Position numbers and translations under genes: made by a program. A stretch of DNA of 64,000 bases from a virus. The stretch spans positions 1 through 64,000 of the IMG/VR virus record IMGVR_UViG_3300031787_000044. One strand, written 5' to 3'. Under the pieces are notes generated by a model that was given only the letters and a program-made list of their open reading frames with translations, did no database searches and was not told where the DNA came from. Of the stretch, positions 33,299-44,836 are shown piece after piece (positions within the stretch are counted from its first letter, which is position 1; the number at the start of each line of letters is the position of its first letter).

Positions 33299-34306
33299 AT
33301 GGCATACATAATAAAAGGCACTACTGTTATAAGTGATGCGGGCGCGATTGATTCCGCACAGAGTAAGATAATTGCAAACAGTTCGTTGGCGCTCGAAGAA
33401 GCTATAGTATATTCACCAGTGCAAGGTAGTACGAGTGGATATACATCAGGTGGAGAAATTGCAAGCCTTAACTATGTGAATACTATCGACAAGTTTCCGT
33501 TTGCGGCAGACGGAAATGCTACCGATGTTGGTGATCTAACAGCACCAGCTCGTCGAGCAGCAGCAGGTCAATCAAGCGCTGAGTCTGGGTATACTTCAGG
33601 CGGTCAATCGCCAATACTTAACACAATTGATAAGTTTCCGTTTGCAGCTAATGCTAATGCCACTGACGTCGGTGATCTTACACAAGCAAGAGCCGCCCCT
33701 GCCGGCCAATCTAGTGACGTAAGCGGTTATACATCTGGCGGAGTGACTGGGCCTACTTACGTTAACACTATAGATAAGTTTCCTTTTGCTGCAAATGCCA
33801 ACGCAACAGACGTTGGTGATCTTACACAAGAAAGAGTAAACGTTGCCGGCCAATCTAGTGACGTAAGCGGTTATACATCTGGGGGATTTAATCTTTCTAC
33901 TCTTGTTAACACTATATTCAAGTTTCCTTTTGCATCTAACGGTAATGCCACAGACGTTGGTGATCTTACACAAGCAAGACTAAGCTCTGCCGGCCAATCT
34001 AGTGACGTAAGCGGTTATACTTCTGGAGGACTTGACCCAGGAATTACTCCTCCTCCTACTCTTGTTAACACTATAGACAAGTTTCCCTTTGCGACAGACG
34101 CCAATGCTACTGACGTGGGTGATCTTACACAATCAAGGTTTGGCCCGGCAGGTCAATCAAGTACAGAATCTGGCTACAATTCAGGCGGGGTCTTGCCTGC
34201 GTACGCAAACACTATTGACAAATTTTCATTCGCGGCAAACGCCAATGCTACTGACGTAGGAGACCTTACACAAGCAAGACTTTACGCAGCAGGTCAACAG
34301 GTATAA
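33299..34306 (+). CDS. Six-bladed Kelch-like beta-propeller protein, paralogue 1
   Basis: Six repeats of SGYTSGG-x(n)-NTIDKFPFAxxANATDVGDLTQAR-xxx-AGQSS. Ends in AGQQV. Confidence 0.8.
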   Translation: MAYIIKGTTVISDAGAIDSAQSKIIANSSLALEEAIVYSPVQGSTSGYTSGGEIASLNYVNTIDKFPFAADGNATDVGDLTAPARRAAAGQSSAESGYTSGGQSPILNTIDKFPFAANANATDVGDLTQARAAPAGQSSDVSGYTSGGVTGPTYVNTIDKFPFAANANATDVGDLTQERVNVAGQSSDVSGYTSGGFNLSTLVNTIFKFPFASNGNATDVGDLTQARLSSAGQSSDVSGYTSGGLDPGITPPPTLVNTIDKFPFATDANATDVGDLTQSRFGPAGQSSTESGYNSGGVLPAYANTIDKFSFAANANATDVGDLTQARLYAAGQQV

Positions 34307-34309
34307 ATA
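34302..34309 (+). promoter_or_regulatory. Late promoter overlapping the stop codon of paralogue 1
   Basis: GTA TAA ATA contains TATAAATA. Confidence 0.75.
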
Positions 34310-34338
34310 AACTAGAGTAGAGTTGGAGAAAGTAAGTC

Positions 34339-35439
34339 ATGGCATTTAAGATAAACGGATCTGATGTTATAGGTGCTGCTAGATCGTATGCCAGTACCGC
34401 AAACGTATCCGTCACAGATTCCATCATCATCGCAAATAACGATTCGTTGGATGCCGTGAGTGGATCGGCTGCCGGATATACTTTCTCGGATGGTACCGTT
34501 GTGATTGGAGAAGACGGTCTAGCGTTAAATGATATTACTCTACGAGATGCTTCGATAGAGGTGACTGGGCCGCTGTTTCAAGGAACGATAAGCGGATATG
34601 CTTCTGGGGGAGGCGACGGTCCCCCGGCGGGTCTCACAATAGAGAAGTTTTCATTTACGTCAGATGGAAATGCCACAGATGTTGGAGACTTAACTGTCCA
34701 AAGAGGATACGCCTCAGGTCAAAGCAGTTCTGTTTCAGGATACACTTCTGGAGGACTCGCCGGCGGTGCTCTCAATACGATCGACAAGTTTCCATTTGCT
34801 TCAAATGCGAATGCCACAGATGTAGGAGACTTAACGCAAGCTAGAAGGAGTATCGGCGGCGGGGGCCAGACTTCTACTGTAAGCGGTTATACTTCAGGAG
34901 GCTTTGTTCCTGCAGCTGTTAATACCATAGATAAATTTCCGTTTGCTGTAAATGCAAACGCCACAGATGTTGGGGACTTAACTGTAGGAAGGTATAACAT
35001 TGCAGGACAATCGAGTACTGAATATGGTTATACCGCCGGTGGATCACCTTCGAATATAATTGACAAGTTTCCATTCGCTGCCGATGGCAATGCTACAGAT
35101 GTAGGCGATTTATCAATAGGAAAATTGGGGCCAGCTGGACAGTCTAGCACCGTGTCTGGCTATACTTCCGGATCATTCCCAGGTAGCAACGTAATAGATA
35201 AATTTCCATTTGCTTCAAATGCTAACGCGACGGACGTGGGTGACCTTAGCCAAGCAAGAGGGTCTAACGCTGGACAGAGTTCTACTACGAATGGTTATAC
35301 TTCTGGCGGGACGTACCAGTTCCTGCCTACTGCGGTCAAAAACACAATAGATAAGTTCCCATTTGCGGCGGATGCTAACGCTACGGACGTAGGTGATCTT
35401 ACGGTTACAAGATCCTCCCCGACAGGACAACAGGTATAA
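34339..35439 (+). CDS. Six-bladed Kelch-like beta-propeller protein, paralogue 2
   Basis: Six TDVGDL repeats after a ~80 aa leader. Ends in TGQQV. Confidence 0.8.
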   Translation: MAFKINGSDVIGAARSYASTANVSVTDSIIIANNDSLDAVSGSAAGYTFSDGTVVIGEDGLALNDITLRDASIEVTGPLFQGTISGYASGGGDGPPAGLTIEKFSFTSDGNATDVGDLTVQRGYASGQSSSVSGYTSGGLAGGALNTIDKFPFASNANATDVGDLTQARRSIGGGGQTSTVSGYTSGGFVPAAVNTIDKFPFAVNANATDVGDLTVGRYNIAGQSSTEYGYTAGGSPSNIIDKFPFAADGNATDVGDLSIGKLGPAGQSSTVSGYTSGSFPGSNVIDKFPFASNANATDVGDLSQARGSNAGQSSTTNGYTSGGTYQFLPTAVKNTIDKFPFAADANATDVGDLTVTRSSPTGQQV

Positions 35440-35442
35440 AAC

Positions 35443-42817: not shown

Positions 42818-42822
42818 TAATC

Positions 42823-42951
42823 ATGGAATTAATTTTAGCGAAAAAGATCGAAGAACTCGAGTTTAACGAACTTCTTGAAGTACTTAGAAAGTTTCAGACG
42901 GAAGATCGTGACGCATTTCAATTGTTACAGGAATTGGTAGAAGATATCTGA
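42823..42951 (+). CDS. Hypothetical acidic microprotein (42 aa)
   Basis: Manual translation MELILAKKIEELEFNELLEVLRKFQTEDRDAFQLLQELVEDI*. It fills the gap and has a TGATG overlap with the next gene. Confidence 0.6.
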   Translation: MELILAKKIEELEFNELLEVLRKFQTEDRDAFQLLQELVEDI

Positions 42952-43928
42952 TGGCACAGATTCAGTTCAACGCGGATGGAACGATAAACTTTGGTGACTA
43001 CACACTCACGTTTACGAACGATGGGTTTGAATTCGACGGTGCTATCTTGGCTACTGAGCATGTAGAAGCTTATAGTTTTCAAGGAAGTGTGAGCGGATAT
43101 ACTTCTGGCGGGTTTTCTATGAACACGATTGATAAATTTCCTTTTTCTGCAAGTGCTAACGCGACGGATGTTGGCGATCTTACACAAGCAAGATATAAAA
43201 CAGCGGGTCAATCGAGTTCTGAATCTGGCTACACATCTGGAGGAAATTACACCGTTAATATAATTGATAAATTTCCGTTTGCTGTTGATGCTAATGCTAC
43301 GGACGTTGGCGATTTAACTCAAGGGCGGCATATGGTGGCAGGGCAGTCAAATGCTGAGTCTGGTTATACTTCGGGGGGGAGTATATCAAATCCATCATAT
43401 ATCAATGTCATTGACAAGTTTCCCTTTTCGGCAAGCGCGAATGCAACCGATGTCGGCGATTTGACGCAAGCAAGGCGCGAGAGCGCAGGCCAAAGCTCTA
43501 CTGTATCAGGTTATACTTCTGGCGGATTTGTCCCACCAGCAATTGATACAATTGACAAGTTTCCCTTTGCGACTAATGCTAACGCAACTGACGTAGGCAA
43601 TCTTACGCGTGGAAGATATAGAACTTCAGGACAATCAAGCGCAGATTCTGGTTATACTTCAGGCGGAAGCCCACCGCTATTTGACACAATTGATAAATTT
43701 TCGTTTGCGTCTGACGCAAACGCAACAAACGTAGGACTATTATTTTCAGGAAGTAGAAATGGTGCGGGTCAGTCGAGTATGGAGTCTGGCTACGTTTCTG
43801 GCGGGGCAAATCCGGGAGGTAGTTATAGCGATGTTATACAAAAGTTTTCATTTGCATCTGATGGAAATGCAACGGATGTCAGCAACTTGACACAAGCGCG
43901 GTTGCAGGCAGCAGGTCAACAGGTGTAA
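42951..43928 (+). CDS. Six-bladed Kelch-like beta-propeller protein, paralogue 5
   Basis: Six repeats, with a leader similar to paralogue 4 (INFG.Y.....G.E.DG). Ends in AGQQV. Confidence 0.8.
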   Translation: MAQIQFNADGTINFGDYTLTFTNDGFEFDGAILATEHVEAYSFQGSVSGYTSGGFSMNTIDKFPFSASANATDVGDLTQARYKTAGQSSSESGYTSGGNYTVNIIDKFPFAVDANATDVGDLTQGRHMVAGQSNAESGYTSGGSISNPSYINVIDKFPFSASANATDVGDLTQARRESAGQSSTVSGYTSGGFVPPAIDTIDKFPFATNANATDVGNLTRGRYRTSGQSSADSGYTSGGSPPLFDTIDKFSFASDANATNVGLLFSGSRNGAGQSSMESGYVSGGANPGGSYSDVIQKFSFASDGNATDVSNLTQARLQAAGQQV

Positions 43929-43930
43929 AC

Positions 43931-44836
43931 ATGGCAATACGTATAACAAAAGATAAACTTGAAAGTATTGACATTACAGACACGTTTCAAGGTGAAGTAA
44001 GCGGTTATACTTCAGGGGGAGCAGACCCCGGCAACGTTAATACAATTGATAAATTTTCTTTTTCCGCTGATGCTAATGCAACTGACGTAGGAGATCTCAC
44101 GCAAGCTCGCCGAGGCCCCGGCGGCCAATCAAGTACCATATCTGGTTATACTTCTGGTGGTTATACACCGTCTCGCGTAAACACTATTGATAAATTTCCA
44201 TTCGCAGCAGACGCAAATGCCACTGACGTCGGTGATCTTACACAAGCAAGAGATAGAGTGGTAGGTCAATCAAGTACCATATCAGGTTACTCTTCAGGGG
44301 GAACAAACCCCGCCGCTGTTAATACAATTGACAAATTTCCATTTGCATCTAATGCAAACGCCACTGACGTAGGCGATTTAACTCAAGCTAGGTCTAGAGC
44401 AGCAGGACAGTCAAGCGACGTATCAGGTTATACATCTGGAGATGGCGCAGCGCCGCTATATAACGTAATTGATAAATTTCCCTTTGCTTCAAATGCAAAT
44501 GCTACTGACGTAGGAGATCTCACACAAGGAAGATTTAATGGTATTGCAGGCCAATCAAGTACCATATCAGGTTACGCTTCAGGGGGAGGAAACCCCACCA
44601 ACGTTAATACAATTGATAAATTTTCTTTTTCCGCTGATGCAAATGCCACTGACGTCGGTGATTTAACTCAAGCAAGAAGTTTTGTAGCAGGTCAATCAAG
44701 TACATCATCAGGTTATGCGTCTGGAGGAGGAACCTCAAACGTAATAGACAAGTTTCCATTTGCATCTAATGCAAACGCAACAGACGTCGGAGATCTTACA
44801 CAAGCAAGAACTGGATCGGCGGGTCAACAGGTGTAA
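43931..44836 (+). CDS. Six-bladed Kelch-like beta-propeller protein, paralogue 6
   Basis: Six repeats after a very short leader. Ends in AGQQV. Confidence 0.8.
   Translation: MAIRITKDKLESIDITDTFQGEVSGYTSGGADPGNVNTIDKFSFSADANATDVGDLTQARRGPGGQSSTISGYTSGGYTPSRVNTIDKFPFAADANATDVGDLTQARDRVVGQSSTISGYSSGGTNPAAVNTIDKFPFASNANATDVGDLTQARSRAAGQSSDVSGYTSGDGAAPLYNVIDKFPFASNANATDVGDLTQGRFNGIAGQSSTISGYASGGGNPTNVNTIDKFSFSADANATDVGDLTQARSFVAGQSSTSSGYASGGGTSNVIDKFPFASNANATDVGDLTQARTGSAGQQV

Follow-up and report, generated by a model that had tools for sequence, protein, structure and literature searches.

Recombination of adhesin segments has been described for the T-even phages. In gp38 and gp37, exchanges in or near conserved glycine-rich motifs bring the intervening hypervariable segments into new combinations (Trojet et al. 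2011, PMC3157838). T4 relatives are also known for tail-fibre genes of mosaic structure (PMC2993671). We analysed a related case in the IMG/VR virus record IMGVR_UViG_3300031787_000044. The window, meaning the whole stretch of DNA that was analysed, was the first 64 kilobases (kb) of this 89.6-kb record, for which CheckV gave a completeness of 43%. It contained six paralogous genes, p1 to p6, and each of them encoded exactly six repeats of about 47 amino acids (aa), predicted to be the blades of a beta-propeller. Among the 36 blades, stretches of identical DNA of 24-121 nucleotides (nt) were shared within and between the genes. These stretches pointed to repeated exchange of short tracts between non-allelic blades.

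T-even adhesin shuffling was reportedly the subject of work by Tetart et al. in 1996 and 1998, to which Trojet et al. 2011 refer. The present locus resembled gp38/gp37 in mechanism and architecture alone. In both, a T4-type phage carries a module assigned to host recognition, conserved motifs alternate with hypervariable segments, and the products are chimeric. Both also combine an N-terminal attachment part with a variable specificity part, which was seen here as p4 N-termini on different propellers. However, the T-even partners are alleles of co-infecting phages, whereas those found here were 36 paralogous blades in six genes of one genome. The protein was a Kelch-like propeller, the resolution was finer than one blade, and the propeller proteins gave no Pfam or PHROG match to gp37 or gp38. 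A further comparison was made with ectopic conversion and concerted evolution of paralogues and tandem repeats, such as bacterial rRNA operons (PMC8022953). The likeness lay in short tracts, presumed to be non-reciprocal at the present locus, in identity of mosaic form, in a copy number that stays constant and in trees unlike the duplication history. In contrast, conversion at the present locus was too rare and too short for homogenisation of the family. Because the blades remained about 63% identical, we regarded the pattern as patchwork and not as concerted evolution.

All six genes were complete open reading frames (ORFs), in which a start codon, an N-terminal domain and the C-terminal closure were present. 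The N-terminal segment was private to each protein, measured 36-98 aa and ended in FQGxxSGYxSGG. The repeat had the form NxIDKFPFAxxANATDVGDLTQ, loop A, GQSSxxSGYTSGG and linker B, and the C-terminus was AGQQV/I. The longest identical tract was 121 nt and was shared by p4 and p6 (Table 1). It had no mismatch and was not extendable on either side, and the same applied to the 38-nt and 36-nt pairs. Along the p4/p6 diagonal of 228 aligned nt, the initial 107 nt held all 25 mismatches and the remaining 121 were free of them (P = 6e-9). The last 18 nt of the 38-nt tract in p4 (37022-37039) were repeated exactly one blade (141 nt) further downstream, at 37163-37180. In p6 the 38- and 121-nt tracts overlapped by these 18 nt, so that 44687-44827 equalled p4 37002-37283 minus exactly one blade. 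These 141 nt were p4 37002-37039 followed by 37163-37283, and the join lay inside the 18-nt sequence that was doubled in p4. Two histories fit this arrangement: p6 copied p4 with a skip of one blade, or p6 donated twice to p4.

A preliminary description of this DNA had listed the 121-, 38- and 36-nt identities, the 45-nt match with its single F/Y difference and the 25-mer common to p3 and p6. We recovered every one of them at the same positions. The mosaic that it had placed in the last blade of p6 was also real and lay mainly in the fifth blade plus the start of the sixth. The tracts of 54, 42, 39, 37, 34, 33 and 30 nt were missing from it; those of 39, 34 and 33 nt were found among blades 2-4 of p1. 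In an orthologue-like protein (P0004), blades 2 and 3 differed from each other in the segment that matches the 54-nt tract of p4.

The identity was compared with the background between the 36 blades, which was about 63% at the DNA level and 41% at third codon positions. Synonymous sites differed freely outside the tracts, as had been stated before. The units that code for the blades are old, and their synonymous sites are saturated. Null (a) kept the proteins fixed and resampled synonymous codons in 200 trials. Its longest match had a mean of 25.4 nt and a maximum of 36. Ten exact matches of at least 30 nt were observed against 0.10 expected, and 18 of at least 25 nt against 0.82. Null (b) used family-specific match frequencies for each column with a Bonferroni correction for about 88,000 comparisons. 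The corrected log10 P values are given in Table 1; the 39-nt tract reached -3.8 and both 25-mers about -3.3 to -3.5. The 25-mers scored well because they covered loop codons that rarely match. A run test that allowed for heterogeneity between sites gave 4 blade pairs at P < 0.001 against 0.63 expected. The two nulls rejected chance as the source of the tracts. A functional nucleotide element was considered as a cause of the identity and was ruled out, since the tracts were pair-specific and lay at differing positions in the blade.

Each blade was painted with its exact matches of at least 24 nt. Blade 3 of p4 (p4b3) was a patchwork of 54 nt from p4b2, then 25 nt from p1b5 (45 with one mismatch), then 38 nt from p6b5. 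Blade 5 of p6 matched p6b1, p6b2, p4b3 and p4b4 in turn. In total 21 of the 36 blades took part in tracts, none of them from p2, and a single blade carried tracts from up to four others. Most tracts were shorter than one blade. Their borders were abrupt, and the flanks were 60-77% identical. Six blades were kept in every gene, so segments were replaced and not added. The maximum-likelihood tree of the 36 blades was nearly star-like. Blade position required 22 changes on this tree against 24 after shuffling, which was not significant, and the gene label was weakly clustered. The supported pairs p4b4+p6b5, p4b5+p6b6 and p2b2+p5b3 crossed genes and positions, in line with what had been expected of such trees. 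Since the tree followed neither gene nor position, simple whole-gene duplication, the outcome set against this expectation in the preliminary description, was ruled out as the source of the pattern. Loop A was inside tracts in 0.21-0.29 of the blades and scaffold in 0.25-0.33, which are similar rates, and linker B, which varies in length, was almost never inside them. Loop A was carried along in four blade pairs, and most tracts homogenised scaffold instead of moving loops. The p2 copy had the longest N-terminus and the lowest identity to the other copies and was in no exact tract of at least 24 nt, as if it were isolated from exchange.

Table 1. Positions in the window of the six propeller genes, of the tracts shared between their blades and of the cassette that splits the array. 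Exact tracts have no mismatch.
Feature	Position	Strand	Description	Basis	Corrected log10 P, null (b)
Paralogue p1	33299..34306	+	60-aa N-terminus and six blades; blades 2-4 mutually share 33-39-nt exact tracts	ORF/blade parsing, exact matches	
Paralogue p2	34339..35439	+	98-aa N-terminus and six blades; most divergent copy	ORF/blade parsing	
Paralogue p3	35443..36435	+	Six blades; a 25-mer in common with p6 blade 3, and three within-gene tracts (29, 28 and 24 nt)		
Paralogue p4	36462..37427	+	Six blades; chief exchange partner of p5 and p6		
Paralogue p5	42951..43928	+	Six blades; RRES-loop tract of blade 3 equals p4 blade 1; 30-nt tract of blade 1 equals p4 blade 2		
Paralogue p6	43931..44836	+	Short N-terminus and six blades, 6/6 in tracts of at least 24 nt		
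121-nt exact tract, p4 copy	37163..37283	+	From strand D of blade 4 across the GTS linker into blade 5 (strands A and B, loop ARTGSA)		-23.8
121-nt exact tract, p6 copy	44707..44827	+	Ends 6 nt before the p6 stop codon		-23.8
38-nt exact tract, p4 blade 3 copy	37002..37039	+	Codes AGQSSTSSGYASG		-3.2
38-nt exact tract, p6 blade 5 copy	44687..44724	+	Overlaps the 121-nt tract by 18 nt		-3.2
36-nt exact tract, p4 blade 1 copy	36699..36734	+	Codes DLTQARRESAGQ; carries loop ARRESA		-5.3
36-nt exact tract, p5 blade 3 copy	43458..43493	+	RRES loop included		-5.3
45-nt tract, one mismatch	34121..34165	+	p1 blade 5, loop SRFGPA; matches 36975-37019 in p4 blade 3, SRYGPA (F/Y)		
25-nt exact tract	36095..36119	+	p3 blade 4, loop SRSRAA; equals 44388-44412 in p6 blade 3, ARSRAA		-3.3
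54-nt exact tract	36798..36851	+	p4 blade 2; equals 36933-36986 in p4 blade 3; codes KFPFAANGNATDVGDLTQ		-4.5
42-nt exact tract	44032..44073	+	p6 linker and blade 1; equals 44599-44640 (p6 blade 4/5 boundary)		-4.7
37-nt exact tract	33656..33692	+	p1 blade 2; equals 44216-44252 in p6 blade 2, 10.6 kb apart		
30-nt exact tract	36828..36857	+	p4 blade 2; equals 43164-43193 in p5 blade 1		
Enzyme cassette	37458..42817	+	About 5.4 kb, splits the array; context only	Pfam	

We favour repeated short-tract ectopic gene conversion or copy-choice among the 36 blades, seeded in the conserved scaffold, and give this reading a probability of about 0.8. The excess of tracts, the mosaic structure and the constant copy number are the features of ectopic gene conversion. 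Stretches of 24-121 nt would be exchanged by non-reciprocal homologous recombination between non-allelic blades, both inside one gene and across genes as far as about 11 kb from each other. Recombination-dependent replication with two template switches would amount to the same. The exchange would start and end in conserved scaffold codons (NxIDKFPF, NATDVGDLTQ, GQSS..SGYxSGG). A tract spanning two scaffold segments would bring the variable loop between strands B and C, and rarely the linker between strands D and A, into another blade. Scaffold DNA would mostly be homogenised locally, and now and then loops on one propeller face would be reassorted. The transfer of a loop may change specificity. 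The driver would be the very active general recombination of a T4-like phage acting on a repeat family; the exchange would be a by-product, on which selection could act afterwards. The preliminary description had proposed that recombination seeded in the scaffold moves loops between genes. This part stood, given the abrupt border, the blades with several donors, the tree and loop A in four pairs, with the restriction that most tracts were scaffold. The shuffling of blades, if taken as whole units, was not borne out, because the tracts of 24-121 nt were mostly shorter than one blade and six blades were kept per gene.

The tract signature was also found in relatives. The protein family was large, with more than 4,482 proteins at E <= 0.001 among 8,000 candidates scored. 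In IMG/VR, 58 of 67 loci, not all of them independent, had at least one exact match of at least 30 nt between blades, and the longest was 83 nt. Codon-resampled nulls gave 0-1.3 such matches per locus. The loci related to the window in viral and metagenome contigs all had at most 72% aa identity, and none of the fetched viral loci reached 85% DNA identity over more than 70 nt. Among 50,697 phage records, no match to the paralogues was obtained by megablast or tblastn, of which the low-complexity filter or the exclusion of the window's own record may be the cause. A 60-nt piece of the 121-nt block had no exact copy in IMG/VR, and its last 36 nt had none in the JGI metagenome contigs. A RecA/UvsX-family recombinase was encoded in all four of the near-complete relatives (4/4; CheckV 89-100%).

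Pairs of closely related loci were compared. L028 and L029 had 5 differences in 11.8 kb, and all of these lay within 20 nt of one blade (L028 122-151, L029 7532-7561). The two alleles each agreed at 4/5 sites with a paralogous blade of the same genome, and this blade was not the same for both. The pattern is suggestive of a candidate micro-conversion that may be segregating in nature. In the pair L010/L053, 80/84 differences lay in one segment of a propeller gene (L010 9270-9519), and in L028/L048 this was the case for 92/97 (L028 2838-3294). These segments of 250-460 nt look like allelic replacements from other phages, and no donor for them was found in the fetched part of the genomes. A strict search for differences between strain pairs with an exact intragenomic donor gave 0 in 23 pairs, most of which were nearly identical. 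Exchange of larger parts was seen at the N-terminus. In P0024, P0089 and P0070 the first 33-53 residues were 100% identical to p4, the propellers were 61-64% identical, and the loops were entirely different. P0004 had a p4-like propeller, 82% identical and with the same blade order, on an unrelated N-terminus of 200 aa. These sequences show the N-terminal anchor and the propeller exchanged between phages as separate modules. Such a pattern of an anchor plus a specificity module is typical of receptor-binding proteins.

The fold was examined by structure prediction. None of the six proteins matched the Pfam Kelch families (Kelch_1 to Kelch_6) at E <= 1, and their sole family match was PHROG 19111, the function of which is not known. 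The AlphaFold2 model of p4 was a six-bladed propeller with four strands per repeat, a predicted local distance difference test (pLDDT) score of 92.5 and a predicted template modelling (pTM) score of 0.85. Foldseek matched this model to the designed SAKe6, Keap1, KLHL3 and KLHL12 at E values of about 1e-18 to 1e-19 and template modelling (TM) scores of 0.75-0.92. An N-terminal strand (residues 47-51, ISGYT) preceded blade 1 and formed a 'velcro' closure in the model. The C-terminus of p4 stopped after strand C (AGQQ, residues 317-320), which was consistent with velcro closure of the ring. With four-stranded blades and this closure, the predicted fold class is the Kelch-type six-bladed beta-propeller. 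In the DSSP assignment of the model, loop A connected strand B to strand C, and linker B led from strand D into the next strand A. From this topology, loop A and linker B would be on the same face, so that 12 variable loops would decorate it. In Keap1 the corresponding propeller face is the ligand-binding side. The propellers are probably host-recognition (receptor-binding) virion parts of the tail. The viral models matching p4 in BFVD were uncultured Caudovirales proteins, a protein of Synechococcus phage S-SKS1 and Kelch-like structural proteins of phages CBB and PhiPA3. For phage vB_PcaM_CBB, mass spectrometry of the virion detected the Kelch-like CBB_552 (PMC5259590). The CBB propellers are likewise six-bladed, encoded by a myovirus and present in several copies per genome. 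They differ in that their sequence identity to those described here was 13-15% and in that no blade exchange is described for the CBB proteins.

Since the window comes from an IMG/VR metagenome contig, the identity might reflect the assembly, with repeats collapsed or the sequence of one paralogue written into another. Logan contigs at k = 31, which must break at repeats of at least 31 nt, were used as an independent check. In run X1, seven contig ends (33685, 33991, 36728, 43464 as a start, 43487, 44061 and 44628) lay exactly 30 nt inside the 37-, 33/34-, 36- and 42-nt repeats. In run X10, a contig start at 37254 and an end at 43487 lay 30 nt inside the 121- and 36-nt repeats. X1 and X10 date from 2019 and 2024 and belong to separate studies, and their listed pieces had 0-3 differences from the window. 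These nine contig ends, each k-1 = 30 nt inside a repeat, were as expected for repeats that occur in two contexts and made misassembly unlikely. The collapse of repeats, by which the preliminary description had said it could fail, was not what the contigs indicated. Moreover, a de Bruijn assembler crosses paralogues solely at truly shared k-mers, so it does not invent identity, and the same type of tract was present in the 58/67 loci from many unrelated metagenomes. On the other side, low-coverage contigs linked different paralogues through the 36- and 38-nt repeats. A contig of run X13 joined p4 to p5 (36698->43458), and a contig of run X15 joined the left flank of p6 to p4 37002-37283 (44686->37002), which would give a p6 of 7 blades. 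These joints had a depth of 3-4x, may be graph walks or real recombinants, and were not counted as recombinants. Stretches of X13 and X15 that had no contig cover were not taken as evidence. X13 also had three substitutions within 4 nt at 33983-33986 (p1 blade 4, loop A), out of 7 differences in the whole 361-nt piece. Other assemblies of the region differed as well. P0005 (233 aa, on a 2.65-kb contig) was identical to p4 up to ...SSDANAT in blade 4 and continued in a shifted frame of the sequence from near 37170. Its translation suggests a deletion of about 62 nt with GG microhomology in p4 blade 4, at about 37107-37170. P0005 may represent a defective variant, or the other assembly may be in error there. 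Overall, an assembly artefact as the source of the tracts was judged very improbable.

Unequal events were weighed against conversion on the basis of blade number and tract length. Recent segmental duplication or unequal crossing-over of whole blades or gene ends, followed by ordinary divergence, would require no conversion. It could produce the p6 tract, which is p4 minus exactly one blade, and the full-length identity of p1 blades 2-4 (78-81%) and of p4b4/p6b5 (83%) suggests some whole-blade events. However, all six genes had exactly six blades, the short tracts ended abruptly between divergent flanks, and one blade held tracts from several different blades. This explanation was considered very unlikely. 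Ectopic conversion among the blades might instead be the work of a selected, dedicated system, in which a six-gene loop library and blade exchange, promoted for instance through a targeted break or some special sequence, produce new receptor-binding surfaces at appreciable frequency. It would be analogous to the segmental conversion of pilin or VlsE or to the assembly of lamprey variable lymphocyte receptors (VLR). In the pilE/pilS system of Neisseria, vlsE of Borrelia and lamprey VLR, the donor cassettes are silent, a single site is expressed, initiation is dedicated and switching is frequent. They are alike to the present locus in short templated patches placed into a protein with repeats or variable loops and in seeding by short homology. 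Silent cassettes, a single expression site and dedicated initiation were not found here, and no sign of high switching was seen in the assembled contigs. The six paralogues, each of which presents 12 variable loops on one face of the propeller, fit a dedicated system, as do loop A being in tracts about as often as scaffold, the family-wide signature, the concentration of strain differences in propeller genes (80/84 and 92/97) and the p4-identical anchors on quite different propellers. Against it, all six copies were complete genes, so there were no silent cassettes and no single expression site. Most tracts merely homogenised scaffold, no candidate nuclease or initiating element was identified, and general T4-like recombination suffices for the pattern. 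The contig pieces shown for four runs (2017, 2019, 2024) had few or no differences from the window, with no indel variants reported, although contigs drop rare variants. A dedicated system was thus held to be unlikely. The route of diversification resembling cassette assembly, as put forward in the preliminary description, was likewise not indicated, given six complete ORFs, mostly scaffold tracts and contig pieces from 2017, 2019 and 2024 with few or no differences from the window.

Diversity-generating retroelements (DGRs) were compared with the array, since they also diversify phage receptor-binding proteins at defined variable positions. They differ in that the tracts here were exact copies and not mutagenised. 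The mismatches between near-identical copies had no adenine bias, so there was no DGR signature. No reverse transcriptase (RVT_1) was found in the 89.6-kb record, which is uninformative at 43% completeness. A broader view is that the array is a self-contained loop library. Exchange seeded in the scaffold, among the 36 blades and with co-infecting relatives, would then be the main selected route for re-tiling the binding face and shifting host range, a counterpart of DGRs on a Kelch-like fold that is independent of reverse transcriptase. This view is doubtful.

Several points weighed against short-tract conversion as described here. The linkage across the 121-nt repeat rested on the original assembly. 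No strain-level relative with DNA was found by which donor and recipient could be polarised, so that non-reciprocity is presumed. In a protein-level check of direction against the outgroup-like P0004, p4 mismatches were 20% inside tracts and 15% outside (P = 0.26). No RecA-type recombinase was found in the record of the window itself, which is uninformative because the record is 43% complete.

The propeller genes sit in the tail-fibre/baseplate module of an uncultured freshwater T4-like myovirus. Upstream genes matched a baseplate hub/lysozyme and a baseplate wedge (gp6-like), with about 31% identity to proteins of Sinorhizobium phiM12-type phages, Caulobacter phage Cr30 and cyanophages. Several genes for collagen-like fibres were found around the propeller region. 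Because of these baseplate matches and fibre genes, the uncultured source was assigned to a distant T4-like myovirus. The collagen-like genes at 27604-31126 and 48751-50733 flanked the array and had triplet arrays of the G-x-Q-G-x-Q type; tandem units of 105 nt occurred at 30464-30829 in this flank. The window sequence was present in 20 public runs from 15 studies (2017-2025). Most of these were labelled freshwater or lake, and the nine best-matching runs were labelled 'fungus metagenome'. The cassette between p4 and p5 put tract partners up to about 11 kb apart. By Pfam it contained a sulfotransferase, three 2OG-Fe(II) oxygenases, an unknown 332-aa ORF, a methyltransferase and a small ORF. 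An NAD-dependent sugar epimerase/dehydratase followed directly after p6, within 44950-45975. These enzymes may modify the fibre or propeller proteins. The gene junctions at 35423-35453, 36419-36449 and 43912-43942 were conserved, with GQQV/I codons, a TAA stop and the next ATG a few bases apart. Their consensus at the three boundaries was CAGGnCAACAGGTrTAAA..ATG, which suggests possible translational coupling along the array.

These results describe real and fairly ordinary recombination of a type already known for the tail-fibre adhesins of T4-type phages. The published T-even model already has recombination within conserved motifs on either side of variable segments, so the idea itself is of a known kind. 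What the locus adds is breadth and a new protein scaffold, and not a new principle. The locus is a clean and statistically strong case of patchwork conversion below the domain level among six co-resident paralogues in one phage. Their protein family is abundant among aquatic T4-like phages, and no function has been assigned to it. Should the propellers be receptor-binding, the tracts would show how loops of the binding face move between blades and genes without a retroelement, and the family would be a tractable system for the evolution of host range in uncultured freshwater phages.

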